64,000 nucleotides of DNA from Gammaproteobacteria bacterium. GTDB taxonomy: Bacteria; Pseudomonadota; Gammaproteobacteria; UBA9214. The notes beneath the pieces were generated by a model. The model was not told where the DNA came from. It ran no database searches and saw only the letters and a list, made by a program, of their open reading frames with translations. A program made the position numbers and the translations under genes. The stretch covers positions 1,026 to 65,025 of the forward strand of contig JAOUBY010000001.1 in assembly GCA_029860045.1 (NCBI GenBank). Direction: 5' to 3'. Below, piece after piece: positions 9,406 through 32,766 of this stretch (its first letter is position 1; the number at the start of each line of letters is the position of its first letter).

Positions 9406-10986
9406 ATGACTGACAATATTCATGCCCACCGGATCCTGATACTGGATTTCGGCTCCCAGTACACCCAGCTGATTGCGCGCCGCGTGCGTGAACTGGGTGT
9501 CTATTGCGAGATCTTTCCATGGGATATCGAGCCGGAAAGAATTGAAGAATTTGCCGCGCGCGGCTTCATCCTGTCCGGCGGACCCGAGACGGCCACGGCT
9601 GCCGAGGCCCCGCGTGTACCGGAGGTCGTGTTTTCCAGTGGCATGCCCGTGCTTGGTATTTGCTATGGCATGCAGAGTATGGCGGCACAGCTCGGTGGCC
9701 AGGTGGAGAACGCCGATCACCATGAATACGGTTATGCGCAGGTGCGCGCGCGCGGGCATTCCCGCCTGCTCAAGGATATCGAGGATCACGCCACCGAAGA
9801 TGGTTACGGCCTGCTCGATGTATGGATGAGTCATGGCGATCGCGTCATGCAGTTGCCGGAAGGATTCAAGGTGATTGCCAGCACCGACAGCGCGCCTATC
9901 GCCGGCATGGCGGATGACGCACGCGGTTACTATGGCATCCAGTTCCACCCGGAAGTGACGCACACCCACCAGGGCGGCCGGATCCTGCAGCGTTTCGTGA
10001 TCGAAATCTGCGACTGTGATGCACTGTGGACGTCGGATCATATCGTCGAGAGCAGCATCTATGATATTCGTGCACAGGTTGGTAGCGGCAAGGTGCTGCT
10101 GGGCCTGTCCGGTGGCGTCGACTCTTCGGTGGTTGCCGCCCTGTTGCACAAGGCGATTGGCGACCAGCTGGTGTGTGTGTTTGTCGATAATGGACTGCTG
10201 CGCCATCACGAGGGTGACCAGGTGATGGCCACCTTTGCCGAGCACATGGGCGTGCATGTTATCCGGGTTGATGCCGAACAACGCTTCCTGGCTGCGCTGG
10301 AAGGCGTGGCGGACCCGGAGCAGAAACGCAAGGTCATCGGTAACCTGTTTATCGAGGTGTTCGAGGAAGAGGCCGGCAAGCTGCCTGAGGATACCCGCTG
10401 GCTGGCACAGGGTACGATTTATCCCGACGTGATCGAGTCGGCCGGCGCCAGCACCGGCAAGGCGCACCTGATCAAGTCGCATCACAATGTCGGTGGCCTG
10501 CCCGAGGAGATGAAGCTGGAACTTCTGGAGCCGCTGCGTGAGCTGTTCAAGGACGAGGTGCGCAAGCTCGGCGTTGAACTCGGTCTGCCCTATGACATGG
10601 TCTATCGCCACCCCTTCCCGGGTCCCGGTCTGGGCGTGCGCATCCTCGGCGAGGTGAAAAAGGAATACGCCGACTGCCTGCGCCTGGCCGATCACATCTT
10701 CATCGAGGAACTGCGCAATAATGACCTGTATGACAAGGTCAGCCAGGCCTTCACGGTGTTTCTGCCGGTGCGTTCGGTGGGGGTGACCGGCGACGGGCGT
10801 CGCTATTCCTGGGTGGTGGCATTGCGTGCCGTGGAGACTATCGATTTCATGACGGCCCGCTGGGCGCACTTGCCCTATGAATTCCTGGATACGGTATCGC
10901 GTCGTATCATCAATGAAGTGCCGCACATCTCGCGCGTGGCGTACGATATTTCCGGCAAGCCGCCGGCGACCATCGAGTGGGAATAG
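9406..10986 (+). CDS. guaA: GMP synthase (glutamine-hydrolysing)
   Basis: 526 aa; [26 protein letters not shown] start, ends ...PATIEWE like E. coli GuaA. Confidence 0.95.
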
Positions 10987-10997
10987 GGAAAGTTGCA

Positions 10998-11231
10998 CAA
11001 CATGCGGACTTCTTTCCGCAGCCGCATCAGTTCCTCGCGTTCATCCGCACCCAGCCCCGCACCGGGAGCCGCTTCCTCGAACTCCCGCTTCCAGCGCCGT
11101 ATCAGGTTATCCCCAATACCCAGGCTCCGGGCTGCCTCGGAGGGCTTGTAACCCTGTTCTGTTACCGGCGCCACTGCATCCCTCTTGAATTCTTCCGTGT
11201 AATCCCGTCTCTTTCTCGTCTCTGTTGTCAT
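10998..11231 (-). pseudogene. IS3-family transposase OrfA N-terminal fragment (HTH)
   Basis: MTTETRKRRDYTEEFKRDAVAPVTEQGYKPSEAARSLGIGDNLIRRWKREF...LMRLRKEVRML, then unrelated residues; no orfB downstream. Confidence 0.6.
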
Positions 11232-11294
11232 TCCTCGCCTCGTTATGGCATTTTACAGCCTTAACCTGGTGTCCGAATTAAGTAGGCCACTTCA
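10998..11294 (-). mobile_element. truncated IS3-family (IS3-group) element remnant: left IR plus 5' part of orfA
   Basis: Terminal sequence TGAAGTGGCCTACTTAATTCGGACACCAGGTTAAG resembles the IS3 left IR; orfA reading frame loses similarity about 12 nt past the guaA stop. Confidence 0.6.
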
Positions 11295-11381: not shown

Positions 11382-13130
11382 GTGAAAGGGCAAGGTAAGT
11401 CTGTGCTACTTATGGCCTTTACAGCATTAGCTTCGGTAATCGGGCTTTTGTTTGGCGGACTACTCGGGATTTGGCCGGCTGATGCATGGGCGGCTATTGA
11501 GTTGGGCACCGGTAATAAATCCGTGGCGGAACTGGGCGCACTGGTTCTCGGGGGGATCGGGATTTTCCTGGTCGGGATTCATTTTGCCGGTGAACATTTT
11601 CAGCAAATGACCGGTAGCGGTTTTCGGGAAAAAGTCACGAATGTCAGCGAGCGTGGGATCGGCGAGTTATTTGCCGGCCTGTTCCTGGGCTTCTTTACCC
11701 AGAGCGGCAAGGCTGTCGCATTCATCCTGGCTGGTTTTGTGCAGGCGAATCTACTGAAAGTCAGGGAAAGCGGGCCGATCATCTTCTGGGGCAATGTTGG
11801 CAGCAGCCTGATCATCTTTTTATCCATGCTGACGATTAAAGTCTTTGCGCTGATCGTGCTTGGCGTGACAGCGCTCGGGCTGACATTTCGCGCTCCCAGG
11901 AAACTGGTGCATGCTCATGGCGCGCTCTTCGGCATCGCCATGATCATGTACGGGCTATTCCTGGTCAAGGAGGGTGCGGGTGGATTCGCGGGAAGTGCCT
12001 GGGTACACACCGTGCTGGAAGGCATGGCCGGTCTTTACCTGCCCGCATTCCTGGCCGGGATGCTGCTGACAGTACTGATCCAGTCCAATATAGCCATGGT
12101 ACTGATTGCAGTCGCGCTGGCTTCCGCCGGATTGTTGAGCCTGGAAGAGGCTGCGATGTCGATCTATGGGGTGCAGGCCGGCACAGGTATACTGACTTAT
12201 ATATTTTCCTCGAACGTGCATGGCCGCGCCAGGCAGGTCGTCATGGGTCAGGTCGCGTTCGATGCGATTACGACCACCGTGTTTTTCCTGATCTTCTTTG
12301 TGGAGAGCTTTTCCGGCCTGCCCCTGGTGTTGACCCTCGCAAGGACTGTCGTCGGAGATCCGGGCGGTCAGGTGATTGTTTTGGCATTGGGGTTTCAACT
12401 GGCGGGTGCGTTGATTCTTCTGACAGTCAGGAAACCTGTGTACGATTTCATCGAGCAGCGCTTTCCGCCATCCACAGCAGAGATACTTTCGGCCACTGAA
12501 TTCCTGCATGACCGGGCGGCAGAGAGCCCCAGTACGGCGTTACTGCTGCTTGAGAAAGAGCAATCCCGGTTGCTGGGAAGGTTGCCGGCGTATATCGATT
12601 TTGCGCGGCCGGAAACCGATCGGGCCGGCTTGCCGAGCCCTGCGGATTACCATGACGCATTCGGGAGTATCAACCAAACGATTAGTGCTACATTCAGCGC
12701 GATGTCGAGGAGGCGCCTGGCAACGGAAGTATCGGAAAGGCTGATACAGGTCGCAAAATCACAGGAGCAGCTTGTCAGCCTGGAGGGTTACGTGTATCAG
12801 CTCGTCAGTCACTTCTCCACCGTTGATCATGGCGGAAAGGCTGAAGAACTCGGGCGAAACATTCTGGAAAGCGTCGACTTCATGATTCTGACTGCAATCG
12901 ATGCAATAGAGTCCAAAGACAGTGGGGAGGTCGAGACGCTGGAACAGCTGACCCAGGATCGTACCGAGATGATGAAGAGGTTACGGCAGAATTATTTCGC
13001 CAGCGAACGGCAAATGACAGAAACTGAACGCAATTTCGTGCTCGATGTCACGATGTTGCTGGAGAATGTGGTCCAGACACTGGCGCGTTATGGCGGATTG
13101 CTTGAGTCTGAGGCAGGCGCTCCGGGTTAG
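11382..13130 (+). CDS. Na+/phosphate cotransporter family protein (NptA/YjbB-like) with C-terminal PhoU-like domain
   Basis: Multi-TM N-terminal half with duplicated Na/Pi-cotransporter repeats; soluble helical C-terminal half. Start taken as GTG 11382 with AAGGAG RBS (alternative ATG 11412); the ORF-track N-extension from 11307 was rejected. Confidence 0.7.
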   Translation: MKGQGKSVLLMAFTALASVIGLLFGGLLGIWPADAWAAIELGTGNKSVAELGALVLGGIGIFLVGIHFAGEHFQQMTGSGFREKVTNVSERGIGELFAGLFLGFFTQSGKAVAFILAGFVQANLLKVRESGPIIFWGNVGSSLIIFLSMLTIKVFALIVLGVTALGLTFRAPRKLVHAHGALFGIAMIMYGLFLVKEGAGGFAGSAWVHTVLEGMAGLYLPAFLAGMLLTVLIQSNIAMVLIAVALASAGLLSLEEAAMSIYGVQAGTGILTYIFSSNVHGRARQVVMGQVAFDAITTTVFFLIFFVESFSGLPLVLTLARTVVGDPGGQVIVLALGFQLAGALILLTVRKPVYDFIEQRFPPSTAEILSATEFLHDRAAESPSTALLLLEKEQSRLLGRLPAYIDFARPETDRAGLPSPADYHDAFGSINQTISATFSAMSRRRLATEVSERLIQVAKSQEQLVSLEGYVYQLVSHFSTVDHGGKAEELGRNILESVDFMILTAIDAIESKDSGEVETLEQLTQDRTEMMKRLRQNYFASERQMTETERNFVLDVTMLLENVVQTLARYGGLLESEAGAPG

Positions 13131-13137
13131 TGTCGTT

Positions 13138-13596
13138 GTGCATTACTCACTTACCCTGAATAACCAACTCACGGATATTGCTCACCTGAATGAGAGCATC
13201 GAGAGTTTTTCGATCCGCGCAGGACTGAATCAACGGCTTTCGCTGCAGATGAAAGTAGTGTTGGATGAAATCGTCGGGAACATTATTAAATACGGTTTTA
13301 CAGACAACCGGAACTCATCTGGCAAAATCAATGTCGAAATAGCGATATCCAGTGACACCCTGATTCTGATCGTCACTGACAATGCTCGATTCTTCAACCC
13401 ACTGACTCAATCCAGGCCTGATTTATCAAGCAATCCCGAAAACAGAGAATTAGGCGGCCTGGGCATCTACATTGTTGGTAAAATCATGGACGAAATGCAG
13501 TATCAGCGAATCGACGGCAAAAATGTGCTGACATTGTCCAAAAGCATCCCGGATGAATCTGTCAGTGGTGATCGACCTGACTCGAAAACCATTTAA
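13138..13596 (+). CDS. anti-sigma regulatory factor / serine-protein kinase (RsbW/SpoIIAB-like HATPase)
   Basis: HATPase_c_2-like (ELGGLGIYIVGKIMDEMQY G-box); likely GTG start 13138 just after the upstream stop (ORF-track ATG 13045 would overlap it by 86 nt). Confidence 0.7.
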   Translation: MHYSLTLNNQLTDIAHLNESIESFSIRAGLNQRLSLQMKVVLDEIVGNIIKYGFTDNRNSSGKINVEIAISSDTLILIVTDNARFFNPLTQSRPDLSSNPENRELGGLGIYIVGKIMDEMQYQRIDGKNVLTLSKSIPDESVSGDRPDSKTI

Positions 13597-13608
13597 CGGA
13601 AAATTTGT

Positions 13609-13950
13609 ATGAAAGTTATTCTGACTTACACGGAAAGTATATTGGTTGCACAATTTAACGGCAGCCTGGACACAGTCACGGCGCCCGAGGCTGAAACACA
13701 ACTGATGAACAAGGTTGATGAGGGTGCAAAATTCATCGTGATTGATTTTGGTATGACAGAATATATTGCCAGCTCCGGCCTGCGGGTGCTGCTGAAGCTT
13801 TCCAGGACATTAAAGAAGCAGGGAGGCCGTGTTTCTCTTTGCCGGGGTAATCAGCAGGTGCAGGAAGTGCTGGAGATCAGCGGTTTCCTGCAAATATTTG
13901 AGCATTTTCCTACTCTGGAAGAGGCGATGAATTCTGTCACTATGGCGTAA
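13609..13950 (+). CDS. STAS-domain anti-sigma-factor antagonist (SpoIIAA/RsbV-like)
   Basis: 113 aa; conserved phosphorylatable Ser in DFGMTEYIASSGLRVLL. Confidence 0.8.
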   Translation: MKVILTYTESILVAQFNGSLDTVTAPEAETQLMNKVDEGAKFIVIDFGMTEYIASSGLRVLLKLSRTLKKQGGRVSLCRGNQQVQEVLEISGFLQIFEHFPTLEEAMNSVTMA

Positions 13951-13965
13951 GCATCCCAGCGACTG

Positions 13966-15552
13966 TTAACACTTGTCATCCAGCCTGGTATGAATCGCCA
14001 TCATCGTAATGTCATCTGCCTGTGGTGCTTCATCCGCAAATCGATCAATATCTTCAATCACAGCTTTTAATATCGTCTCAGGGTTGGCCTTTAACTGCCC
14101 ATTTAAAAGTTCCACAAGGCGCGGCACGGAATATAATTGCCCTTCCATGTCTTTCGCCTCGGTCACGCCATCGGTGTATAAAAACAGGGTGTCACTGCTC
14201 GAAAGTTGATGATTCCCATTTTCGTACACGGCCTTATCCAGTACGCCCAGGGCGATACCCGGCTTGCATTCCAGGTTTGTAACACCATCTGCAGGCGATA
14301 AAACAAACGGCGAATCGTGCCCGGCTGAGCAGTACACCAGTTTGCCAGTCTGTAAATCCAGCACGCCGCAAAATACCGTCACGAACATGCAGGCATCATT
14401 GTTGACACACAGCTCCCTGTTAACCGATTGCAGCAAATCGCCGGGTTGGGAATAATTATTGGCCTTGGTCCTTAGCAAGGTGCAGGTCATTGACATGAAT
14501 AATGCCGCTGGCACGCCTTTACCGGCAACATCACCGATTACAAAAAACAGCTTTCTGCCAAACTCACCGGTTTTTGAATCTGCGCCGTGTTCGCCCAGGT
14601 AAAAACAATCGAAAAGATCTCCGCCCACTTCTTTGGCCGAGCGCACCATGGCATAAACAATTACGTTCTTGTGCAGTTTCTTCAAGGTGGCCTGATCCGG
14701 CAGCATTTTTAGCTGGATTTCCCTGGCTACAGCCAGTTCAGTGTTAATCCGCTCCTGGGCTGCGACATTGCTGGCCAGGGTTTTAACTGATTCTGCGAGG
14801 GCGTCCTCCATGAAAATAAATGATTTGGCCAGCTCGCCAATTTCATCGTGTGAGTGACTGGTCAGTCGCGCAATTTCGTGCTTGAAGCAGTCGATATTTT
14901 CAATATCCACGCTGGCCAGTTTTTCAGCGTGCCGGTTCAGAACAGTTAAGGGCTGCGAGATTTTATCGATCAGAAAGTACGTAATGATGATACTCAGGAT
15001 CATTAATAATAAAACGATGCCCTGCTGCTGCAGGATAATAGACAGAATCTGATCCTTGATCAGGCTTTTATCCATACCCACCAGCACGTAACCCGCCTCA
15101 CCGCCTAAAATGGGTGAAACAATGTTTTGATGACGCTCCATTTCGTGGATGTCATTGTCAAACGTACCGGCCCGGTGGTTTACCAGGTCAAGCTTCAAAT
15201 TGTGCGTGAGTTGCGCAATATCATTCGGGATACCCGGAACAAAAGTGTGTGCAACGATGTCACCCGCCCTGTCGGCTATTAACACATGAGAAACACCCTC
15301 AACTCCCAGGTATTCATCAATCGTGGATTGCAGTGCCGCCGGGTTATCTGCCATCAGGGCCGCAATGCTCGCTTCGGCCAGAATGCTGCCGATAGAATGG
15401 CCTTTGACGTCAAACTCCTGTGTCATGCCGGTGTAGATCGACCAGGCAGATAATATTGAGATGCTGGTCGAGATCAACCCGAACAGCACCACTACAACAA
15501 TGAGAGTTTTTTTAAAGAGGCGGGACACCGGGACTCCAGCCTGACCAATCAT
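13966..15552 (-). CDS. membrane HAMP-PP2C (SpoIIE/RsbU-type) serine phosphatase with periplasmic sensor domain
   Basis: 528 aa; two TM segments flanking a ~130-aa periplasmic region, a HAMP-like linker, then PP2C motifs (GGDLFDCF, VIGDVAGKG, DGVTE); convergent with the STAS gene. Confidence 0.8.
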   Translation of the reverse strand: MIGQAGVPVSRLFKKTLIVVVVLFGLISTSISILSAWSIYTGMTQEFDVKGHSIGSILAEASIAALMADNPAALQSTIDEYLGVEGVSHVLIADRAGDIVAHTFVPGIPNDIAQLTHNLKLDLVNHRAGTFDNDIHEMERHQNIVSPILGGEAGYVLVGMDKSLIKDQILSIILQQQGIVLLLMILSIIITYFLIDKISQPLTVLNRHAEKLASVDIENIDCFKHEIARLTSHSHDEIGELAKSFIFMEDALAESVKTLASNVAAQERINTELAVAREIQLKMLPDQATLKKLHKNVIVYAMVRSAKEVGGDLFDCFYLGEHGADSKTGEFGRKLFFVIGDVAGKGVPAALFMSMTCTLLRTKANNYSQPGDLLQSVNRELCVNNDACMFVTVFCGVLDLQTGKLVYCSAGHDSPFVLSPADGVTNLECKPGIALGVLDKAVYENGNHQLSSSDTLFLYTDGVTEAKDMEGQLYSVPRLVELLNGQLKANPETILKAVIEDIDRFADEAPQADDITMMAIHTRLDDKC

Positions 15553-16744
15553 CGATGCTCACATAATGCCCATCCTGTACGGTGTTGAAATAAACGCTTT
15601 GCAGGCCCTGGTTATTTGCCTCGCTAAAATGCACGCGTTCACCAATCCCGATATCATGGTCAACCAGGGTATTCATGGTGCTTTTAATGTTGGCCCGGTT
15701 TATATCGCCTCCCGTACGCCGTAATATTTCGACCATCAGTTTAGCGTTTAAATAGCCCTCAAAGCTGACAAACCCCAGCTCCTCAAGATCATTTTCCTGC
15801 ATTAACCGGCGATACTCGAGCGCGGCAGGGTAACTATCGTCGTGATAGTTGGGTACCACCTCGGAATTGATCAGGTTGGCGGTGTAGTCCCTGCCGCTTG
15901 ATGATGACTCGGCTACCAGCAACCCGAGCAAACTTTCACTATCGACAAACGAGATATTTGCGATAGGTACAGCCCAATCGGCATTTCTGCTATCCCGGAT
16001 AAATCCGGCCGCGGCGGCGTAGGCGCCTATGGAAATAACCACATCCGGCGTGGATTCCCGCAAAATCTCTACCTGTTGATTAAAACTCTCGTCATAGGGC
16101 GTTCCTCTACGGTAAGTTGCTTCTCCAACAATACTCAAACCATGCTCTTTTAATGCTCTGCGCACGCCATCCCAACCGCTTCTGCCATAGGCGTCTGCCT
16201 GATAAAAAACGGCAATCCTGTCTCTGCCAATGTTGACCAGGTGATCAACCAGGCCCCTGGTTTCCTGGCGGTATGAGGGCCGCAAATTATAGGCGTAAGC
16301 GCTGAATGGCGGCTGACGCTGGGGCTCAGCACCGGTAAAGGGGAAAAACAGCAAAAGATTTTTATTGTCGTAGATATTAAGCAGTGGTAAAACGCGCGTT
16401 ACGGTAGGTGTGCCGATGTAACCGATCAGGGCGGAAACTTTATCTTCCTCAATTAATTTTAAGGTATTTTTTATGGCGGGTTCAGGGTCGTAACCATCAT
16501 CGTATTCTTGCAGACGGATTGACCTGCCGTTGATGCCACCCTGGGCATTAATATGCTCAAAGTAGACGGACATTCCATTGTACAGCGCGCTACCCAGCCT
16601 GGCCGATGTTCCGCTGAATGCCCCGGACATTCCTAGGACAATGTCAGCTTTTTGTGCTGTGGGCTCATTTTGTTTAAGTGGCTTGTCGCTCAAATCATGT
16701 TGGGCAAAACCAACTAGCGGCAGGATCATAAACAAAAGCGCCAT
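15512..16744 (-). CDS. periplasmic substrate-binding protein, type-1 PBP (LivK/branched-chain amino acid-binding-like)
   Basis: Start taken at Met14 (16744), which has an AAGG RBS and a signal peptide MALLFMILPLVGFA; Peripla_BP_6-like pattern; 3' end overlaps the phosphatase start by 41 nt. Confidence 0.7.
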   Translation of the reverse strand: MALLFMILPLVGFAQHDLSDKPLKQNEPTAQKADIVLGMSGAFSGTSARLGSALYNGMSVYFEHINAQGGINGRSIRLQEYDDGYDPEPAIKNTLKLIEEDKVSALIGYIGTPTVTRVLPLLNIYDNKNLLLFFPFTGAEPQRQPPFSAYAYNLRPSYRQETRGLVDHLVNIGRDRIAVFYQADAYGRSGWDGVRRALKEHGLSIVGEATYRRGTPYDESFNQQVEILRESTPDVVISIGAYAAAAGFIRDSRNADWAVPIANISFVDSESLLGLLVAESSSSGRDYTANLINSEVVPNYHDDSYPAALEYRRLMQENDLEELGFVSFEGYLNAKLMVEILRRTGGDINRANIKSTMNTLVDHDIGIGERVHFSEANNQGLQSVYFNTVQDGHYVSIDDWSGWSPGVPPL

Positions 16745-16782
16745 TTTATACCTTGTTGAACGGGTTCTTGCCATGGGCCACA

Positions 16783-17043
16783 TTACTCCAGAAACCCGGG
16801 CATGCGTTTCCTCTCCATCGCGTTGAGTTCGTCAATAATGTATCGGGCTCCCATCAACCTTATTTGAACCGGAAATGATTCCATCACGACGACATTCTCA
16901 TGTATCCCGTCCTCTTCCGACTCCATGACTCGCTCCAAAACGGGATCCGGCGACTCCGCGCTACCCACAATGACAGAGGAAATCATGTCTTTCTTAAAAC
17001 CCGTATCACCGCTATCCGTCATCAAGCATCCTGCGGCAATCAA
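16783..17043 (-). CDS. hypothetical small acidic protein (possible first gene of the SBP-phosphatase operon)
   Basis: 86-aa ORF ending 38 nt upstream of the SBP start; lower-GC; no recognisable motif. Confidence 0.2.
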   Translation of the reverse strand: MIAAGCLMTDSGDTGFKKDMISSVIVGSAESPDPVLERVMESEEDGIHENVVVMESFPVQIRLMGARYIIDELNAMERKRMPGFLE

Positions 17044-17282
17044 GGAATCGGCAGATAGAGCGATTTAGGGTCTGACATGAATTACACCTTGTTACTGTGT
17101 AGTAATGAATGACTGGCGGTTTCGATGCCTTGCCCTCGATGCCACCGGTTATCTCTCATCCGTTTCTTGTACCTGTGCATGACCAGCCCGATGACATCGC
17201 TAACCACGATGTAGCCATAACCGGTAATCGGCTTACGGAAATCCGGATGCGGCATCAGGTCGTTTCGCCCGCTAAATCCCCC

Positions 17283-22461: not shown

Positions 22462-24486
22462 TTACTTGTTCGCGGTCGCGCGTTGTTGTACGCCAGATAA
22501 CGGCACAAACTGGTCCAGCGGTTTCGGTGTGTCGATGCCGAAGCCTTGGGCATAATCAACGCCGATGTCGTGCAGTTTTTCCAGGATCTGGTCATTTTCG
22601 ACAAATTCAGCGATCGTTTCCTTGCCCATAACGTGACCGATTTCATTAATGGAGCGGACCATCGCCTCATCGATCGGGTCGTCTACAATGTCCTTGACGA
22701 AGCTGCCGTCGATCTTGAGATAATCTACCGGCAGGTTCTTTAAATAGGCAAATGATGAGAGGCCGCTGCCGAAATCGTCAAGCGCAAACGAACAACCGAT
22801 TTCTTTCAACCGCGAAATGAATTCCGTTGCTTCGCTGAGGTTGGTAATCGCCGCTGTCTCGGTGATTTCAAAACAGATCTTTCCTGCGGGGACTGCGGAT
22901 TCAGTGAGTAAGTCCAGCAAGTAATCCAGGAACCGGGCATCACTGATCGACTGGCCTGACAGGTTGATCGAGCACTTGCCCAGTTGGTCGGTTATGTGTG
23001 AATTCCTGTCTAACCACTCAAAGGTCGTTTTCACTACCCAGCGGTCCAGGGATGTCATGAGATTGTATCGTTCCGCCGCGGGGATAAATGCCCCTGGCGG
23101 GATCAGTTTACCTTTCTCGTCTTTCATGCGAACCAGGATTTCGATCAAACCCAGCGGGCATGCACCGGTACTGCCGACCGAAATTATTTGCTGACAGAAT
23201 AGCTGGAACCTGTTGTTTTCAAGGGCCTCGTTGATTCGCGCTACCCACTGCATTTCCCCGTAGCGATCAACAATCATTGCGTCGTTCTTCCCGAAAACAT
23301 GAATGCGGTTCCGGCCGGCATCCTTGGCGCTGTAACAGGCGGCATCGGCGGCACTCATGATGTTGGCAATGCCCCCGCTGTCCTTGTCGACCAGTACGAC
23401 ACCTATACTGGCGCCTATTACGAAGCTTTTATCTTCCCATACAAAACGGAATTCCTGGACGGTACTCAACAGGGAATTTGCCACGCTGATGGTGTGTTCA
23501 GGCGTACAGTGCTCCAGTAACACGCCGAATTCATCACCCCCGAGGCGCACCAGGATATCGCTATTGCGTATTTTCTGTTGCAATACCGTCGACAATTGCC
23601 GCAACAGTTCGTCACCTGCAACATGACCACAGGTATCGTTGACTATCTTGAACTGATCCAGATCGATATACAGCATCGCATGTGTTGCTTGCTCAGTGAC
23701 AACGCTTTCCAGTGCCCGCTCCAGGTGGTTCTCGAATTCAAACCGGTTGATCAAGCCGGTAAGGGCGTCGTGACTGGCCTGGTAGGATAACTGTTTCTGG
23801 AGTTTCCGTTCCTGGATGATCTGTTTGAACAGCACATCCTCAGTCTGGCTGGTGCGACGCATGACGAAGAACGCGACAACAATGCCGACAGCGATCGCTA
23901 TGGCCAGCAGGATGCCGATAAATACGACTGTTTCGCGATAAGCTTCCCTGGACTCGTCCATTGCGCGCCTGGCGGCGACCTGCTGATACTCCAGCATCTG
24001 GCCTAGTTGCACCAGGACTCTGTCCTGTGCAGGGATTGCATGGTCGAACAGCAACCGGGTGGCACGCTCCGCTTCTTCGTCTACCAGTAACTGTACAACC
24101 TGCTCTTGCAGGGGAACTGACTTGGCCGTCAGTCTTCCCTGCTCATTGTGTAAGGTCAACTCCTCTGGCCCCAGGCCTTTCTTGCTGAGTGCGATGCGGG
24201 CCAGGGCAAACTCCGTTGCCAGCCCGTTCATGCGCATATATTCTTCGTCCCGATCGAAGGGGTCCTTCTGGTTCACCATTCTCAACAGGCTGATGGACCG
24301 CTCGCGGGCGGCATTGTACATGTCGATAATGTGATCAGTTTTTACGTTGTACTGGTCAACGATTGTCTCCATTCTTTGTTTGTTTTCAGCCATCCGGGTG
24401 AGGCCAACCGCCGCCACCATGACCACCAGCGCCATGACGGCTGCAAAACTCACCAGGATGCGGAATTTAGAAGAGATGGTCGACAT
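22462..24486 (-). CDS. membrane sensor GGDEF-EAL protein (diguanylate cyclase / phosphodiesterase)
   Basis: Two TM segments flanking a periplasmic helical domain, then GGDEF (RLGGDEFGVLL) and EAL (EITET...DDFGSG) domains; start at MSTISSKFRIL. Confidence 0.8.
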   Translation of the reverse strand: MSTISSKFRILVSFAAVMALVVMVAAVGLTRMAENKQRMETIVDQYNVKTDHIIDMYNAARERSISLLRMVNQKDPFDRDEEYMRMNGLATEFALARIALSKKGLGPEELTLHNEQGRLTAKSVPLQEQVVQLLVDEEAERATRLLFDHAIPAQDRVLVQLGQMLEYQQVAARRAMDESREAYRETVVFIGILLAIAIAVGIVVAFFVMRRTSQTEDVLFKQIIQERKLQKQLSYQASHDALTGLINRFEFENHLERALESVVTEQATHAMLYIDLDQFKIVNDTCGHVAGDELLRQLSTVLQQKIRNSDILVRLGGDEFGVLLEHCTPEHTISVANSLLSTVQEFRFVWEDKSFVIGASIGVVLVDKDSGGIANIMSAADAACYSAKDAGRNRIHVFGKNDAMIVDRYGEMQWVARINEALENNRFQLFCQQIISVGSTGACPLGLIEILVRMKDEKGKLIPPGAFIPAAERYNLMTSLDRWVVKTTFEWLDRNSHITDQLGKCSINLSGQSISDARFLDYLLDLLTESAVPAGKICFEITETAAITNLSEATEFISRLKEIGCSFALDDFGSGLSSFAYLKNLPVDYLKIDGSFVKDIVDDPIDEAMVRSINEIGHVMGKETIAEFVENDQILEKLHDIGVDYAQGFGIDTPKPLDQFVPLSGVQQRATANK

Positions 24487-24991
24487 CGTCTGATTTAATT
24501 TAACCGGTACCCGCGCCGGGGGCAGCCGCATTGAGGCGGCCAGGTGCGACGCATTCAAGTATAAGTTCCTGTTTTTCAATATCTCCCATAGCAATAGCCC
24601 CGACGGCGATGGGTAGCCAGTTCGCATCACTAGTTGAGGGATTGGTTCTTCGTTATAGGCTAGCGGTCAACATTTGGATTTCATTAGTTTCTTATCCGGG
24701 AGTGATTTACTGATTTCTTGTCGGAATCACACGGCACACAGGACCCCGACCATTGCAGAATGACTGCAAAGTCTCGAATTACGGCCGATACTGTTTTACC
24801 GGTTCTGGATTAGTGGGGCTGAGATAACTAACTGATTGCCCGGCCCGGTTATACTCATCACGCGCTTGATTTAAGCGGTGTGCTCAATACACATACTAAA
24901 AAGAGGGCGATGTGCCGAATCAGGGAAGGGATATATCGGGGGCCGGCGCGCCACTTGCATTTGTTATCCTGATGCGTTGGCTGCGTAATTA

Positions 24992-27838
24992 ATGAAAATC
25001 AAGGGCAAACTTGTTGTGACTTTTGTGTCATTGGCGCTTGCTACGCTGATGGTGCTGGGCGCGATTGCCTATTACAGCGCAGAAAACGCACTCTCTGACC
25101 AGGTTCTCGATAACCTGGAGAGTGTTGCCACGACACAAAAACACAGAATTGAAAGCATTATCGAGCAAAACCTGGAAAGGCTTGCCCTGGTCTCTTCAAG
25201 AACCCAGCTACGGATCAGCCTGAAGGAATACATCGCAGAGCCCAATCAGCAGTCGCGCGATAAAATGAACCGTATCCTGGGCGATGCCGCTGTTTCGATC
25301 AGCGACTTGCGCGGGCTTTTCATCCAGACACTTGACGGCCGGATCGTGGCATCTACAGACCCGGCCTTGATCGGCCAGGTATACGCAGATGAGGACTTTT
25401 TCCTCGCCGGCCTGCACGACAGTCGCGCAGACCTGTTTCATCGGGACGAGGCTCATGCTCACCGGCACGGACCCGGGCACCTGGGAATATATCTTTCGGG
25501 GCCGCTGTCCCTGGAGGAGCAGCGGCTGGGCGTGCTGGTCATTGATACTGATGCATCCAACATCATTGAATCGATCACGGACTACCACGGGCTTGGGAAA
25601 ACCGGAGAGACCTTGCTGGTACGTCGCAATAATGCCGGTGATGCCCTGTTCCTTACGCCTGCCAGGTTCGAGCCGGATTCCGCATTGAGCCGAACGGTGC
25701 AAGCGGGCAATTTGCAATCCCCGTTTACCCGGGCCCTGCTGAAACAGGAGCAATTGCTCACTGATGCGGTGGATTATACAGGCAGGGCCGTTATTGCGGT
25801 TACGCGTTACATTGAGAACGCCGGCTGGGGCCTCATTGTTCAGAGACGTAAGGACGATGCGTATGCGCCGATTGTTGCGTTGCGTCACTCCTTGTTGTTG
25901 CTGATCGGATTATCCGCAGTCGCGGTAGTTCTGGCGTCACTGTATATAGCCGGCACCATCACACGTCCAATCATCCGCCTCACGGAGGTTGCAACCCGGA
26001 TCAGTGGCGGGGCACTTGGGGAACGTGCCGAGGTGAGCACGGGTGATGAAGTCGGCATCCTGGCCAGGGCCTTCAACCAGATGACTGAAGACCTGGTTGA
26101 CGATATCAATGAGCGGCGACAGGCTGAGGAAAAATTTCAGGCGCTGCTGAAGTCTGCGCCTGATGCGATTGTGATTGTCGATCACACGGGCCAGATTATT
26201 CTCGCCAACCTGCGCGCAGAGCTGTTGTTCGGCTATAAAAGCGCAGAATTGATTGGTAAGCCGGTCGAGATGCTGGTGTCAAAGCGCCATCGTCATGAGA
26301 CTGTCTCCATGTGGCAAGCCTTCGTTGATGAGCCACACCATCAGCCGATGGAGGATAGTCATGATCAGTACGGGCTGCACAAGGATGGAACGGAGATTCC
26401 AATCGAGATCAGTCTTGCACCTATAGAAACGCGCGAGGGCCTGCTGGTCGCAAGCGCAATTCGTGATATTACCGACCGCAAGGAGGCGGAAACCCGTCTT
26501 GTGCAGCAGGCCAACTTCGATACCCTGACCGGCTTGCCCAACCGGTCACTGGCTGCAGACCGCCTGTCTCAGGCAATGGCACATGCCCGCAGGGCGCGGG
26601 AGTGCGTGGCTGTTATGTTTCTGGATGTTGATCACTTCAAGAATGTCAACGATACGCTCGGACACGCAGCCGGCGACAAACTGCTTACAGAGGTGGCACA
26701 CCGTCTGAGTCGTTGTGCGCGTACTGAAGATACGGTGGCACGTCTGGGCGGTGACGAGTTCCTGATCATACTTTCCGGGCTGAATACAATCACCTCGGCC
26801 AAGGGCGTGGCCGAGAAACTACTCGAAGCATTAAGTATTCCCTTTGCCCTGGACGGACGTGAACTGTTCCTCGGTGCCAGCATAGGTATAACCGGTTACC
26901 CTGAGGATGGTGACGAATCCGATGTCTTGCTGCGCAATGCTGACGCAGCCATGTACCGGGCGAAAGAGGCCGGGAGAAATACCTACCGGTTCTTTACGCC
27001 CGAGATGAATATTCAGTTGCTCCAACGCCTGGAAATGGAGTCTCACCTGCGTTATGCCGTCAGCAAGAAAGAACTGTCACTCCATTTCCAACCACAGGTT
27101 GACATAAAAAGCGGCGAGCTGGTTGGCGCCGAAGCATTGTTGCGCTGGCACAATCCCGAGCTCGGCCATATTGCACCGGATGACTTCATCCCGCTTGCCG
27201 AAGAGACCGGGCTTATTAATGAAATTGGCGAATGGGTGTTGATGCAGACCTGCCAGACGGCCAGGACCTGGCAGGGCAGGGATACTGCTGTTCGTGTATC
27301 GGTCAATATTTCACCCGTACAGTTCAGGGGCGGTGATCTCGTCGAAACAGTGTCCCGAGCACTTCAGGAGAGCGGTTTGCCCGCGTCACTGCTGGATCTC
27401 GAGATCACCGAACGGGTGCTGGTTGAGGACAATCCCAATACAAGCCGTATCCTGAATGACCTCAAGCGGATGGGTATCCGGCTCACACTGGACGACTTTG
27501 GCAAAGGCTATTCGTCGCTAAGTTACCTCAAACGCTTTCCGTTCGACGTACTCAAGATTGATCGGGCATTTGTGTCGAGCGTGACGGTGGACCCCGAGGA
27601 CGCTGCCCTGTGCAAGGCGATTACCGCGATGGCAAGCAGCCTGAGTCTGCTGGTGGTGGCAGAGGGAGTGGAGACGCTGGATCAGTGGGAGTACCTCCAT
27701 ACGCTCGGTGTCGACCTGGCCCAGGGTTACTACATCAGCAGGCCGCTGGGTAATGAGGCATTTATCAGCTTCATAACAGACGCAGAAAGGTTTCTGCTGG
27801 GTCGTGCCGAGATGAACTGGGACCGTCGCGGCATCTGA
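24992..27838 (+). CDS. Cache-like sensor / HAMP / PAS / GGDEF / EAL signalling protein
   Basis: 948 aa; periplasmic domain between 2 TMs, HAMP, PAS (PDAIVIVDHTGQI), GGDEF (RLGGDEFLIIL), EAL (EITERVL...DDFGKGYSS). Confidence 0.85.
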   Translation: MKIKGKLVVTFVSLALATLMVLGAIAYYSAENALSDQVLDNLESVATTQKHRIESIIEQNLERLALVSSRTQLRISLKEYIAEPNQQSRDKMNRILGDAAVSISDLRGLFIQTLDGRIVASTDPALIGQVYADEDFFLAGLHDSRADLFHRDEAHAHRHGPGHLGIYLSGPLSLEEQRLGVLVIDTDASNIIESITDYHGLGKTGETLLVRRNNAGDALFLTPARFEPDSALSRTVQAGNLQSPFTRALLKQEQLLTDAVDYTGRAVIAVTRYIENAGWGLIVQRRKDDAYAPIVALRHSLLLLIGLSAVAVVLASLYIAGTITRPIIRLTEVATRISGGALGERAEVSTGDEVGILARAFNQMTEDLVDDINERRQAEEKFQALLKSAPDAIVIVDHTGQIILANLRAELLFGYKSAELIGKPVEMLVSKRHRHETVSMWQAFVDEPHHQPMEDSHDQYGLHKDGTEIPIEISLAPIETREGLLVASAIRDITDRKEAETRLVQQANFDTLTGLPNRSLAADRLSQAMAHARRARECVAVMFLDVDHFKNVNDTLGHAAGDKLLTEVAHRLSRCARTEDTVARLGGDEFLIILSGLNTITSAKGVAEKLLEALSIPFALDGRELFLGASIGITGYPEDGDESDVLLRNADAAMYRAKEAGRNTYRFFTPEMNIQLLQRLEMESHLRYAVSKKELSLHFQPQVDIKSGELVGAEALLRWHNPELGHIAPDDFIPLAEETGLINEIGEWVLMQTCQTARTWQGRDTAVRVSVNISPVQFRGGDLVETVSRALQESGLPASLLDLEITERVLVEDNPNTSRILNDLKRMGIRLTLDDFGKGYSSLSYLKRFPFDVLKIDRAFVSSVTVDPEDAALCKAITAMASSLSLLVVAEGVETLDQWEYLHTLGVDLAQGYYISRPLGNEAFISFITDAERFLLGRAEMNWDRRGI

Positions 27839-27871
27839 TCCATATTCTTTCAGGGCAGAGGCTGCTGCTGA

Positions 27872-28477
27872 TTATTCCAGGTCGGCGATCATTGCCAGTC
27901 TGACCAGTTCGGTAGACGAGATTGCCTCCATCTTTGTCATGAGATTGGCTCGGTGTAGTTCCACGGTCTTGACGCTGATACCAAGTGCCTGGGCAATGAC
28001 CTTGTTTTGCGACGAGCGGATGACATGTCCCATGACTTCCCGCTCACGCGGCGTGAGCAGTTGCGAGCGCTGCCTGATTTCGTCGACCCGCTCCTGGTTG
28101 CGTCGGTTGTCACGGTCATAGGCAATGGCGCCCTGAACCCGTTCGAGCATGAGTGCATCGTTGTAGGGCTTCTCGATGAAATCCCAGGCGCTGGCCTTCA
28201 TCGCGCGCACGGCCATGGCGACATCCGCGTGTCCGGTAACAATAATGACGGGGATGTCGGCGCCGCATTCGCGGAGTTTTGCGTGCAACTCCATGCCGTT
28301 GATATCGGGCATGCGCACATCAAGCACGACACAACCGGGGTCTCCAATCTTGTAGTGGTCAAGAAATGCCATGCCATTCTCGAATACGCGCACTGCCTGG
28401 CCTGCGGACTCGATGAGCCACTGGAGCGATTCCCGGGCCAGGCGATCATCATCGATGATGTAGACGATGGGTTGCAT
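27872..28477 (-). CDS. FixJ/LuxR-family two-component response regulator (TtrR-like)
   Basis: REC domain (DDD...VLDVRMP...K) plus LuxR-type HTH; 3-nt gap from the histidine-kinase gene. Confidence 0.85.
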   Translation of the reverse strand: MQPIVYIIDDDRLARESLQWLIESAGQAVRVFENGMAFLDHYKIGDPGCVVLDVRMPDINGMELHAKLRECGADIPVIIVTGHADVAMAVRAMKASAWDFIEKPYNDALMLERVQGAIAYDRDNRRNQERVDEIRQRSQLLTPREREVMGHVIRSSQNKVIAQALGISVKTVELHRANLMTKMEAISSTELVRLAMIADLE

Positions 28478-28480
28478 GGT

Positions 28481-30889
28481 TCAGGCGGCCTCGTGTATTG
28501 GCAGTTCGAAGGAGAATTCCGCGCCACCGCCGGCCAGCGTCCTGGCAAAGATGTTGCCGGCGTGGGACTCGACTATGGAACGACTGATCGATAGCCCGAT
28601 CCCCATGCCGTCCGGCTTGGTCGAATAAAATGCATCGAATATTTTCGGTAGTGCTTCCTTGGATACGCCTTGTCCGGTATCAGAAGCGATGAGCTGTACG
28701 GTCTCCCCGTTACTGCGCGTGGTAATCTTTAGCTGGCGGCTTCCTGTCTCGGTCATATCCATGGCGTCAATGCTGTTGCGGATGAAGTTCAGTATCACCT
28801 GTTCGAGCTGGATCATGTTGCCCAGTACGGGCGGCAGTTCCTTGTCCAGGTCGAGTTCGATACCGACATCATGCCTGCGCGCTTCCATCATGACCAGCGC
28901 GGTAATGTTGCTGGCCGCCTTGTTCAGGTCCACCAGAGTACGTTCAGCGCTTTCTTTTTGCACAAATTCACGGATATTGCGGATGATATTGGCCGCCAGT
29001 GTGGCGCCTTCAATAGCCCGCTCCATGCCCTCGACGATCTTGTCAGTATCACTCGTGCCATCGCGCAAAAGACGCAGGCAGCCGCTGCTGTAGTTGATAG
29101 CGCCAGTCAGCGGCTGGTTGAGTTCATGGGCGAGGCTGGCCGCCATCTCGCCGATCGTGCTCATGCGCGAGACGCGCGCCAGTTCCGACTGGTGCCGCTG
29201 CTGTGATTCAGAGGCTAGTTGTCGTTCCATTTCGTCACCGATCCACTGGGCCATGACCTTGAGCAACTCGAGGTCCCATTTGCTGAGGTGCTTTTCGCGA
29301 ATCCCTGTACCGGCGAACTCCAGTGTGCAATGGACGCGTCCTTCCACCAGCACTGCGGTGCCGAGGTAGCTCTGCAAGCCCTGTACCTCGCAGTCCGGGC
29401 AGGACACCCTGGCCGCGGAGAGGTCCGGTACATCGAGCGGTTCGCCATGCAATGCGATCAGTTTACTTGCGCCCTTTGCATTCAGGGGGCCCGGGTTTTC
29501 AGGTATCAGGCCTGCCTCGCCGGAGGTCTTGCAGTGGCAAACACCCTGCTCGTTACGCTCGGCACTGGACAGTACCGCAACGGGAAGATCGAAATACGCG
29601 CGACCCGTCTCCAGCAGACGGGACATCCGCTCGTCGTGTGAGAGTTCCGGGGCACTGGTAATGCGCACCAGTTCGCGTAGCGCCACCCGGCTTTTCTCCA
29701 GCCCCTCGTTGGTGGTCTTCAGGTCTTCGGTACGCGTCGCGACCTGTTCTTCCAGCGTGTCGCGGTAGCGAGCCAGTTTCGCCTGTGATTTTTCGCGTTC
29801 CTTGATTTCCCGGCGCAGGTTACGCTCGGTATCCTTGAGCCTGCGGTTGGTGTTGGATATATAGCCGTTCAGCAGCACCAGGAAGCCCAGCAGCAGCCCA
29901 ATCCCGACAAACCACCAGGCGTAGCGCTTGAGCATCCCGAGAAAGGAAGCCTGGCGCAGTACTTCGTAGGGGCCAATCTGCAGTGCCTGCATCAGATCAT
30001 GCACAGGGGAGTAGTCCAGCGGTACCGTCCATCCGGCCATGCGCGCCGCCTGTGTGGCGGGGTGGTTGGCCGGCATCGATAGCAGTGCCTGGGCCACGCG
30101 GGTGGCGAGTTCCCTGGGGGCATTCTTTGTCATTGCGAATGGCCACTCGGGGTATAAGCGAGTACTCAGCGGGAAGGGCGTGTTGTCCAGGCTCTGCGGA
30201 TTGAGGATGCAAAACTCGCCCTCGGCCACCTTGCCGCTTTCAATCATCCGCACCAGTGTTTCGGCCCGCACTGTCGCCGCATCGATCTCGCCCTTGTGTA
30301 CGGCCATGATGATCTTGTCCTGGGGAAAACCGGCAAAGTGCAGTTCGCGGATGTCGCTGAAGGGATCAATGCCATGCTCATTCAGTTCCCGCCAGGCCAT
30401 CTGGAAACCGCCAAAGGCTTTTTGGCTGACGGCCATAAAGGATTTGCCTTTCAGGTCAGCAAGCGTAGTGATGTCGGGTCGGTCGGCGCGCGCGATGATC
30501 ACGGCGCCATAGCGAACGCGGGTTTGCTCGCCCTCGCGGGTCTGCATGGTGGCGATACGTGAAACACCGTGGCTTGTTTCCAGGCTGACATAGTTGCCCG
30601 GATTGGTGAGTGTAAAGTGGATGTATCCTTCCTGAATGGCCCGGGGCATTTCCTCGAGGTTGACGGGCACAATCTCGAAGTGATGGGTGGTTATTCTTTC
30701 AGACAGATAGTCTGCGGTCGGTGACCAGCGCTCCACCGCCTCTTGCTTGCCACGGTGGGCCAGCACACCGATGCGTACGACCGTGACCTGATCAGTGGGC
30801 GAGGCCGGGGTCGCAGGCGTGCTCACCAGCAGCATGGGCAGCAGCAGTGGCACCAGCAAGTGCCAGCGTGGTTTGATTGACCGGAACAT
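28481..30889 (-). CDS. sensor histidine kinase with periplasmic PhnD/SsuA-like binding domain (TtrS-like)
   Basis: Signal peptide, ~300-aa periplasmic PBP-like domain, TM, coiled coil, GAF-like region, HisKA (HELNQPL) and HATPase (GMGIGLSISRSIV). Confidence 0.8.
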   Translation of the reverse strand: MFRSIKPRWHLLVPLLLPMLLVSTPATPASPTDQVTVVRIGVLAHRGKQEAVERWSPTADYLSERITTHHFEIVPVNLEEMPRAIQEGYIHFTLTNPGNYVSLETSHGVSRIATMQTREGEQTRVRYGAVIIARADRPDITTLADLKGKSFMAVSQKAFGGFQMAWRELNEHGIDPFSDIRELHFAGFPQDKIIMAVHKGEIDAATVRAETLVRMIESGKVAEGEFCILNPQSLDNTPFPLSTRLYPEWPFAMTKNAPRELATRVAQALLSMPANHPATQAARMAGWTVPLDYSPVHDLMQALQIGPYEVLRQASFLGMLKRYAWWFVGIGLLLGFLVLLNGYISNTNRRLKDTERNLRREIKEREKSQAKLARYRDTLEEQVATRTEDLKTTNEGLEKSRVALRELVRITSAPELSHDERMSRLLETGRAYFDLPVAVLSSAERNEQGVCHCKTSGEAGLIPENPGPLNAKGASKLIALHGEPLDVPDLSAARVSCPDCEVQGLQSYLGTAVLVEGRVHCTLEFAGTGIREKHLSKWDLELLKVMAQWIGDEMERQLASESQQRHQSELARVSRMSTIGEMAASLAHELNQPLTGAINYSSGCLRLLRDGTSDTDKIVEGMERAIEGATLAANIIRNIREFVQKESAERTLVDLNKAASNITALVMMEARRHDVGIELDLDKELPPVLGNMIQLEQVILNFIRNSIDAMDMTETGSRQLKITTRSNGETVQLIASDTGQGVSKEALPKIFDAFYSTKPDGMGIGLSISRSIVESHAGNIFARTLAGGGAEFSFELPIHEAA

Positions 30890-31892: not shown

Positions 31893-32171
31893 TCAGAATT
31901 TATCAATCATGTCACGCAAACGCTTCTGTAACGATTCGGGGGTATGCTTTGTAGCCGCGTTTTTTATGCGGGCCGATAATGCACTTTCAACCTGTGAACG
32001 CGTGAAACAACTATGGCAGTGCTCCAGATGATACTCTAGCTTGCCGATTGAATCGGCATCATCGACCTCGCCATCGAGATAGGCGTAGAGCTTGTCGATC
32101 GCTTCTGTGCAGTTAATATCTTCTATATTTTCACTGTCTTTATCAGTCGTCATTTGATTTTCCTTCCGCAC
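31893..32171 (-). CDS. zinc-binding (ZAS, zf-HC2) anti-sigma factor
   Basis: 92 aa; HLEHCHSC = HxxxCxxC; overlaps upstream ECF sigma gene by 29 nt. Confidence 0.75.
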   Translation of the reverse strand: MRKENQMTTDKDSENIEDINCTEAIDKLYAYLDGEVDDADSIGKLEYHLEHCHSCFTRSQVESALSARIKNAATKHTPESLQKRLRDMIDKF

Positions 32172-32766
32172 ATTTACACTCGATCAAACCTTCGTCACTG
32201 GCCTGTTGCCAGAGCGCTTTTTGCAACAGCGTACGTCCGCGCTTCATGCGGGAATGAACTGTGCCGGGCGGCACACCAAGCACCACTGCCGTTTCATCGT
32301 AAGATAAACCCTCGACGTTAACCAGCAATATGGTCGTCCTGAATGCATCAGGCAGGCTGTCGATGGCCATCATGATGTCCTCGCCGAGCAGGCTGTTTAC
32401 AAACGCCTTTTCCGGATTGGCCCACCAGTACATAAACTCGTTTGACTGCTGGATTACCAGGTCGCCGATTTCATCCTTGCCTTCCGCAACTGACAACTCA
32501 TCGTAGCTGGACTCACAGGGGCGCGCCGACTTTTTCCGATAGTCACTGATAAAGCAGTTGTGCAGGATACGAAACAGCCAAGGCCGAAACCGGCTTCGAT
32601 CCTCCAGCTTCCCAACCGCCGCCCATGCCTTTGCCACGGACTCAGCTACAAGGTCTTCAGCTTCTGCATTGTTGCGCGTCAGGCGAAAAGCTACGCTGAA
32701 CAATGAACCCATGTTTTCCTCAATACCCTGGCTGAACCAGGCTTTGAGAATTTCCCTATCCGACAT
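32143..32766 (-). CDS. ECF (sigma-70 family, group IV) RNA polymerase sigma factor
   Basis: 207 aa; region 2 (FRPWLFRILHNCFISDYRK) and region 4 (LSYDETAVVLGVPPGTVHSRMKRGR) signatures. Confidence 0.8.
   Translation of the reverse strand: MSDREILKAWFSQGIEENMGSLFSVAFRLTRNNAEAEDLVAESVAKAWAAVGKLEDRSRFRPWLFRILHNCFISDYRKKSARPCESSYDELSVAEGKDEIGDLVIQQSNEFMYWWANPEKAFVNSLLGEDIMMAIDSLPDAFRTTILLVNVEGLSYDETAVVLGVPPGTVHSRMKRGRTLLQKALWQQASDEGLIECKCAEGKSNDD

Follow-up and report, generated by a model that had tools for sequence, protein, structure and literature searches.

We analysed a window of 64,000 nucleotides (nt) from a metagenome-assembled genome (MAG) of a Gammaproteobacteria bacterium (UBA9214 lineage; assembly GCA_029860045.1, contig JAOUBY010000001.1, forward-strand positions 1,026 to 65,025), in which the gene of a Na/Pi-cotransporter family protein is directly followed by genes encoding an RsbW-like serine kinase and a STAS protein. 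The functional coupling of this partner-switching module and the transporter is well supported. We propose a model, to which we give about an even chance, according to which the module acts on a secondary transporter and not on a sigma factor, the kinase or the STAS protein binding to a PhoU-fold tail of the transporter and thereby gating transport. Which protein binds the transporter, whether transport is turned up or down, and which ligand and substrate are involved are inferred parts of this model.

The three genes form one tight cluster on the plus strand (window 11382-13950), with the transporter stop codon at 13128-13130 and the STAS gene starting 12 nt after the kinase stop, so that the open reading frames (ORFs) and coordinates of an original prediction, made by a model from the letters of this DNA, are borne out. 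That prediction regarded the three genes as one operon; the tight packing on one strand agrees with this, but the unit extends past 13950 and comprises five genes, as genes encoding a PP2C phosphatase and a Peripla_BP_6 binding protein converge on the trio from the minus strand. The phosphatase gene ends fifteen bases from the STAS stop and overlaps with the gene of the binding protein. Both genes, as well as the recent mosaic nature of the junction described below, had been left out. The locus is identical in three assemblies, i.e. the NCBI MAG "Gammaproteobacteria bacterium" (MDH3978888.1, MDH3978891.1) and two others.

Linkage of the transporter with kinase and STAS genes

Transporter relatives at 46-79% identity to the window protein were fetched from genomes and metagenomes, and clade loci with at least 1.9 kb of upstream DNA were regarded as assessable, resulting in 17 loci, about 13 of them distinct after merging near-duplicates. 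In all 17, the transporter gene is clustered with genes encoding a phosphatase-kinase protein and a STAS protein, whereas none of 18 loci of distant family members (24-37% identity) has a kinase, STAS or PP2C gene within 12 kb; one of the latter shows pstS, a CHAD-domain gene and ppk2 beside the transporter. The association of the transporter clade with a kinase domain and/or a STAS protein is far beyond chance, giving a positive outcome to the neighbourhood survey for the three families that the original prediction had suggested as its own test.

The canonical gene order in the clade is binding protein, hybrid histidine kinase, REC-PP2C-HATPase_c_2 protein, STAS protein, cyclic-nucleotide-gated channel and, as last gene, the transporter. 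The hybrid histidine kinase, seen in the longer loci, shows the architecture dCache-HAMP-PAS-HisKA-HATPase-REC-REC-Hpt; the binding protein is present where the locus DNA reaches far enough and is UrtA-like where tested; the channel consists of Ion_trans and cNMP_binding domains and its gene has a 4-nt overlap with the transporter gene. Locus L012 has the canonical gene set in a divergent arrangement, and shorter contigs show the channel gene wherever upstream DNA is present. The UrtA-like binding proteins of the canonical operons (L036 915-2204; also the upstream genes of L001, L004 and L011) are encoded without ABC permease genes and reach 465.5 bits against TIGR03407 (cutoff 492.75); a UrtA-like protein without permeases suggests a urea- or amide-type ligand signalling via the hybrid kinase. 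Ammonium transporter genes are located in two of the flanks. Locus L002 (JAACFF010000382.1, labelled Chloroflexota) gives tblastn identities and lengths equal to those of L001, a Gammaproteobacteria MAG, for four genes; as the two are alike although their MAGs are placed in different phyla, the L002 contig is probably mis-binned.

The arrangement of the window itself recurs on the metagenomic contig L097, the transporter of which is only 32% identical to that of the window: the same five genes are found in the same order and orientation, the phosphatase carrying a TorS_sensor_domain and the transporter stop and kinase start overlapping as ATGA. L097 was found, together with L109, in a metagenome scan seeded by a phosphatase alignment, which matched generic PP2C motifs and returned mostly distant phosphatases. 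The L097 clade comprises about 60 protein clusters including cultured Hyphomicrobiales, and on three more contigs of this clade transporter-kinase adjacency is apparent from read-through gene calls. Rhizobium sp. LjRoot30 has a bare kinase-STAS-transporter trio without phosphatase or other sensor, its transporter being WP_435995385.1. Constant across the four layouts are the kinase domain, the STAS protein and this type of transporter. Plasmid searches returned distant relatives only (26% identity, pstS/ppk2 context) or nothing.

As to sigma factors, the gene of an extracytoplasmic function (ECF) sigma factor at 32146-32766 on the minus strand (TIGR02937, 82.8 bits versus a cutoff of 42.9) is, as originally stated, the nearest one, with none lying within or beside the island. 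Apart from this, no sigma factor family was found between about 1400 and 35100 of the window, judged from the gene table of the identical contig L033 and from Pfam annotation of 22.4-35.1 kb, and the module loci with annotation (L003, L033-L041, L042-L044, L097, L127) likewise show none in their gene tables or Pfam scans. A sigma gene beside the kinase in homologous loci, which the original prediction had named as the finding that would speak against it, was seen in no annotated locus, and the window kinase does not have the neighbouring cognate sigma gene that usually accompanies anti-sigma kinases of the RsbW/SpoIIAB type. Searches by tblastn with sigma region-2 peptides and with the ECF sigma factor of the window gave no match in the module loci and also none in 742 kb of background DNA, showing that this search is insensitive, and we do not rely on it; a Pfam scan of 44 flanking ORFs covered the best 25 of 53 families.

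Properties of the five proteins

The kinase is a member of the HATPase_c_2 (GHKL) family (PF13581, E 3.4e-18, 66 bits versus a cutoff of 27.4) with RsbW (6m36) and SpoIIAB being its closest solved relatives, while its scores against the NCBIfam RsbW and SpoIIAB equivalog models are far under the cutoffs. The start codon chosen in the original prediction, GTG 13138, is located 7 nt past the transporter stop and matches the position at which homologous kinase domains start; the public gene call uses ATG 13090 instead, resulting in a 41-nt overlap with the transporter gene. With either start, the transporter and kinase genes are tightly coupled. The N box (DEIVGN, with its Glu and Asn) and the G2 box (GGLGIY) are conserved.

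The STAS protein (PF01740, E 2.4e-21; TIGR00377, 69.2 versus a cutoff of 53.45) aligns with SpoIIAA such that its ASSGL sequence matches DSSGL, placing Ser55 (codon 13771-13773) at the position of the phospho-Ser. Each of the 18 module STAS proteins in the comparison has a Ser at this site, and Ser55 is the predicted phospho-acceptor.

The phosphatase matches the SpoIIE/PP2C family PF07228 with an E value of 3.7e-53, its HAMP match being weak; homologues at 54-57% identity show the architecture sCache_3_2, HAMP and SpoIIE. Alignment A2 shows no variation in the PP2C Asp motifs GGD..D, GDVxGKG, TDG and SDD, and the enzyme is presumed to act on the phosphorylated STAS protein. The binding protein (Peripla_BP_6, Pfam E 2e-48) has no ABC permease genes near its gene in the window. 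The succession of a binding-protein gene and a phosphatase gene is also seen in L042-L044, L048 and L097, and we presume the binding protein to be the ligand sensor of the phosphatase. This resembles the TorT-TorS type of system in which the gene of a periplasmic binding protein is located beside that of a membrane sensor, a similarity extended by the TorS_sensor_domain of the L097 phosphatase; the sensor drives a PP2C domain in the window and L097, but a histidine kinase in TorS.

Phosphatase, STAS protein with conserved Ser and HATPase_c_2 kinase are the same three families that constitute RsbU-RsbV-RsbW of Bacillus sigma-B and SpoIIE-SpoIIAA-SpoIIAB of sigma-F. The window differs from these systems in that a sigma gene lies neither in nor beside the operon, the third partner being, in our proposal, the transporter tail, and in that its phosphatase is membrane-bound, has a periplasmic sensor domain and comes with a dedicated binding protein. 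The canonical relatives resemble, by architecture, HptB-HsbR-HsbA of Pseudomonas aeruginosa and CrsR-CrsA of Shewanella oneidensis, with which they share a REC-PP2C-HATPase_c_2 protein followed by a STAS protein and a hybrid kinase with Hpt domain; this single-polypeptide form is present in L001 and L003 (Pfam scan) and in L035-L041 (precomputed Pfam). In contrast, the window form is split, a separate kinase and a HAMP-PP2C protein without REC replacing the fused protein. The HsbR/CrsR systems target RpoS, FlgM and HsbD and have no linked transporter or channel.

The transporter matches Na_Pi_cotrans (PF02690, E 2.3e-29) in two stretches, in line with the two-repeat build of the family, and NCBIfam NF037997 with 64.6 versus a cutoff of 50, the latter within residues 59-356 only. 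The sequence QSSS is the signature of both re-entrant hairpins in SLC34/NptA. The window transporter lacks it in both hairpins, showing QSGK (residues 107-110) and QSNI (residues 234-237) instead; in a motif census, QSGK was present in 120 of 120 clade members (P0001-P0120) with QSN[LIV] in the second hairpin, and PhoU-positive relatives had QSSS or QSSA. With QSSS replaced by QSGK and QSN, phosphate is not assured as the substrate, which may be a different one, and the Lys residue in hairpin 1 suggests an altered ion or substrate specificity. Concerning its length, the protein has 535 amino acids in the NCBI record MDH3978888.1 and 582 elsewhere; an AAGGAG Shine-Dalgarno sequence, which precedes GTG 11382 by 7 nt, speaks for the longer form. 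The three public assemblies agree in this protein with 100% identity.

The original prediction had assigned a PhoU-like cytoplasmic domain to the transporter. At the level of sequence this does not hold, as the tails of the window, L097, L127 and L003 proteins have no match to the PhoU profile PF01895 even with the threshold set to E<=10; at the level of structure it does, the tail (residues 351-582) having the PhoU-type six-helix fold of two three-helix bundles. The tail has a PhoU fold though the PhoU sequence profile fails. The YjbB/NptA-type Na/Pi-PhoU proteins (PF02690 plus PF01895) share this build of a Na_Pi_cotrans membrane domain and a PhoU-fold tail, but sampled proteins of one group are on average only 18% identical to those of the other, and the window clade is distinguished by QSGK/QSN[LIV] and the missing Pfam PhoU match; classic YjbB/NptA-type members are found in phosphate contexts, e.g. 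with pstS and ppk2.

Mosaic origin, proposed mechanism and competing explanations

The junction of transporter and kinase genes in the window is a recent mosaic. An ORF at 10875-11231 on the minus strand, which overlaps the 3' end of guaA, matches HTH_Tnp_1 (E 2e-15) and represents the OrfA remnant of an IS3-family insertion sequence (IS) with OrfB being absent. We take the end of this remnant to be marked by a putative IS911-like terminal repeat, with about 85 nt separating the repeat from the transporter start. All close transporter relatives have the channel gene at the place of the remnant, and the closest ones (66-79% identity) show the channel upstream but in no case a kinase downstream; in L046 the downstream gene encodes an ArfB-like GGQ protein. 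The remnant is likely the scar of a rearrangement that removed the usual upstream genes of the clade. Binding protein, phosphatase and STAS protein of the window are 51-62% identical to those of a separate cassette lineage (L042-L044), in which genes of a binding protein and an sCache-HAMP-PP2C phosphatase converge on kinase and STAS genes without a transporter, and reach only 35-41% identity with their canonical-operon counterparts; the window transporter groups with the canonical-operon clade. With the cassette-lineage proteins and the transporter having these different affiliations, the adjacency in the window was assembled independently, consistent with the IS3 remnant and with a step in the content of guanine and cytosine (GC) at about 13.0 kb (analysed over window 12600-17200), the values being 55-57% for the transporter gene, 47-50% for the kinase, STAS, phosphatase and binding-protein genes and about 60% for the flanks. 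This compositional mosaic points to the two pieces having been acquired separately. So, a transporter without its former upstream genes became joined to a different partner-switch cassette in this lineage.

The transporter-less cassette relatives adjoin other membrane transport genes (L042 5835-6728, L043 5538-6761, L044 4919-6673), encoding a Cation_efflux protein, an NCS2-type permease fragment and an MscS-type channel; these are three loci and anecdotal, and there may be a wider transport-gene theme around the cassette. A pairing of cassette relatives with a STAS-less SulP permease was considered and dropped, the L043 neighbour being an NCS2-family fragment.

We propose the following mechanism. 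The periplasmic binding protein would take up its ligand and dock on the periplasmic domain of the membrane phosphatase, and the signal transmitted through the HAMP domain would set the PP2C activity on phospho-Ser55 of the STAS protein, to which the RsbW-like kinase would return phosphate from ATP. Depending on the phosphorylation state of the STAS protein, either the kinase, with the tail taking the place that the sigma factor has with RsbW, or the STAS protein, as for HsbA, SiaC and MlaB, would bind to the transporter tail, and this would switch the transporter on or off. Non-sigma outputs of this kind are known for HsbA (PMC5085249, PMC6482189), for SiaC acting on SiaD (PMC8457831) and for MlaB acting on the transporter ATPase MlaF (PMC7367683), and PhoU proteins are adaptors between transporter and kinase (PMC9239213, PMC13577022).

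HsbA has non-kinase partners (PMC6482189, PMC5085249). SiaABCD of P. aeruginosa combines a membrane HAMP-PP2C phosphatase, for which the window phosphatase has its best NCBIfam name match (SiaA, far below cutoff), with a kinase and a small phospho-switch protein, and its co-encoded non-sigma output is bound directly (PMC7647112, PMC8457831). This output is a diguanylate cyclase and a transporter is not involved. SiaC is not known as a canonical STAS protein, and its phosphorylated residue is a Thr. In PhoU with PstSCAB and PhoR, a PhoU-fold module is located at the cytoplasmic face of a phosphate-family transporter and has a GHKL-type kinase as partner (PMC9239213, PMC13577022); in the window, the PhoU fold is instead fused to a secondary transporter and too divergent for Pfam, and the kinase is an RsbW-type Ser kinase without PAS domain. 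In the Mla lipid transporter of E. coli, the single-domain STAS protein MlaB binds and regulates the transport protein MlaF (PMC7367683). MlaB is a constitutive subunit of the ABC transporter, unlike the STAS protein of the window. MlaB is not known to have a dedicated kinase/phosphatase pair.

Several observations weigh against the proposed action on the transporter. The G1 box of the kinase reads DNARFF, without Gly, in place of DDGxPF, the same being true of the cassette relative L043, and the absence of the G1-box glycines makes it uncertain whether the kinase is active. The STAS and transporter genes of most relatives are separated by a channel gene, and the channel could be the real target. 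The junction in the window is recent and seen in one MAG lineage only. The clade closest to L097 (37% identity to its transporter) has no module in the one distinct locus examined, and in a rough neighbour-joining tree the window and L097 clades are not sisters, so the linkage is either ancestral with losses or was gained more than once. No fusion with both a transporter and a kinase half was found by phmmer (query P0324) in 1.84 billion representative proteins, and an AlphaFold2 model of the P0324 read-through gave a predicted template modelling score (pTM) of 0.65 with both domains at a predicted local distance difference test (pLDDT) above 90 but no confident packing between them, its alignment being noisy with PP2C segments misaligned onto the tail. 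The original proposal that the kinase/antagonist pair regulates the transporter is partly supported, the invariant kinase-STAS-transporter core in four layouts being what it would predict; for physical regulation, neither a fusion nor the model of pTM 0.65 speaks in its favour, and the binding of kinase or STAS protein to the transporter is a proposed one.

Candidate Rosetta-stone fusions were rejected: P0246 and P0340 of the L097 clade are frameshifted read-throughs of overlapping genes and are evidence of adjacency only; the same applies to P0324, a read-through call of tail plus HATPase_c_2 which is in frame and N-terminally truncated; P0363 is a tandem kinase. Such apparent fusions where two genes overlap call for caution in mining domain architectures.

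The conserved linkage is equally well explained if the transporter is the input, its PhoU-fold tail informing the kinase/STAS pair about the state of transport or of the substrate, as PhoU reports PstSCAB to PhoR, with the output encoded elsewhere. The fold of the tail and the role of PhoU in bridging transporter and kinase (PMC9239213, PMC13577022, PMC4423584) are in favour of this, and in the minimal Rhizobium locus, being devoid of phosphatase or other sensor, the transporter is the sole candidate sensor. However, RsbW-like kinases lack the PAS domain which is the PhoU contact site in PhoR, most loci own dedicated sensors, i.e. a binding protein together with a Cache/HAMP histidine kinase or phosphatase, and no output gene is conserved beside the module. 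We consider a transporter acting as input unlikely.

Likewise improbable in our assessment is a conventional switch with RpoS, FlgM or another distantly encoded sigma or anti-sigma factor as its target, the transporter and in relatives the channel being merely co-transcribed. The HsbR/CrsR targets are not known to be adjacent to the switch genes, rpoS being encoded far from the HsbR/CrsR genes in those genomes. HsbR and CrsR, which have the REC-PP2C-kinase architecture, bind RpoS, and HsbR/HsbA and CrsR/CrsA act on RpoS and FlgM (PMC6482189). The absence of a sigma gene nearby is for this reason not decisive and weak evidence alone; moreover, the canonical relatives have an HsbR-type REC-PP2C-HATPase_c_2 protein fed by a hybrid kinase with Hpt domain, and the closest solved relatives of the window kinase are true anti-sigma factors. 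Against this explanation, the same type of transporter is found with three non-orthologous modules (fused HsbR-type, split sCache-PP2C and phosphatase-less pair), and beside the window transporter a different cassette was recruited, which co-transcription does not explain; also, no sigma factor occurs in any annotated locus.

It is highly improbable that an IS-mediated rearrangement accidentally placed an orphan transporter beside an unrelated cassette without functional link: the IS3 remnant immediately upstream, the GC step, the closest transporter relatives without downstream kinase and the cassette relatives beside unrelated genes would fit, but the transporter joined the same kind of module that its relatives always have, L097 reproduces the gene order exactly, the spacing is operon-like (7 nt or overlap) and the locus is identical in three independent assemblies.

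Going beyond the window, our action-on-transporter model may be extended, with somewhat less than even confidence, to a widespread and undescribed class of partner switch, in which a QSGK-type transporter, possibly not a phosphate carrier, would offer its PhoU-fold tail as docking site to a kinase/STAS pair; STAS phosphorylation would decide on the docking, and ion transport would be gated post-translationally. In most lineages it would also act on the translationally coupled cyclic-nucleotide-gated channel, the input coming from periplasmic binding proteins via a phosphorelay or a membrane PP2C phosphatase. In the full-text literature, no paper was found that connects Na/Pi-family transporters or cyclic-nucleotide-gated channels with partner switching; the families of the components have been described before, as have partner switches with non-sigma outputs, but a switch coupled to a secondary transporter that has a PhoU-fold tail appears to be new. 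Gram-negative genomes contain many partner-switching modules, most of them without a known target, and comparative genomics here indicates a testable target class. If confirmed, partner switching would extend from the control of transcription and cyclic di-GMP to ion flux as a directly controlled output, a function would be assigned to a large branch of the Na/Pi family that is so far uncharacterised, and the PhoU fold would mediate transporter-kinase communication in a second case beside PhoU-PhoR; it would be the first partner switch with a transporter as the exchanged partner. The idea is open to experiment in Rhizobium sp. LjRoot30, a cultured organism with the minimal set of three genes.

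Locus layout and neighbouring genes

Table 1. Features of the transporter-kinase-STAS locus in window coordinates (aa, amino acids; TM, transmembrane segment).
Feature	Position	Strand	Remarks
Transporter, Na/Pi-cotransporter family (PF02690)	11382..13130	+	582 aa; GTG 11382, TAG stop 13128-13130
Transporter cytoplasmic C-terminal domain, residues 351-582	12432..13127	+	six-helix PhoU fold; proposed kinase/STAS docking site
RsbW/SpoIIAB-like serine kinase, HATPase_c_2	13138..13596	+	152 aa; 168 aa from ATG 13090
STAS protein, single domain, anti-sigma-antagonist family	13609..13950	+	113 aa
Membrane sensor phosphatase: TM, periplasmic sCache_3-like, TM, HAMP, PP2C (SpoIIE)	13966..15552	-	528 aa
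Periplasmic binding protein Peripla_BP_6, Leu/Ile/Val or urea-binding type	15512..16783	-	gene caller start 16744
IS3-family transposase OrfA remnant, HTH_Tnp_1 only	10990..11294 (span also given 10875-11294)	-	between guaA and transporter

Scans for promoters and terminators did not score the real sequence above shuffled sequence. An ORF of 86 amino acids (window 16783-17043, minus strand; 79 amino acids according to the gene caller), for which there is no Pfam match, directly precedes the binding-protein gene; in the cassette relatives, no corresponding gene is called at this place. Further along, window 22465-30889 holds a signalling gene cluster, for which no evidence was found tying it to the transporter-kinase-STAS module. 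It encodes two GGDEF-EAL proteins, one of 4HB_MCP type and one of dCache-HAMP-PAS type. Its other products are a LuxR-type response regulator and a histidine kinase to which a phosphonate-type binding domain and GAF are fused.

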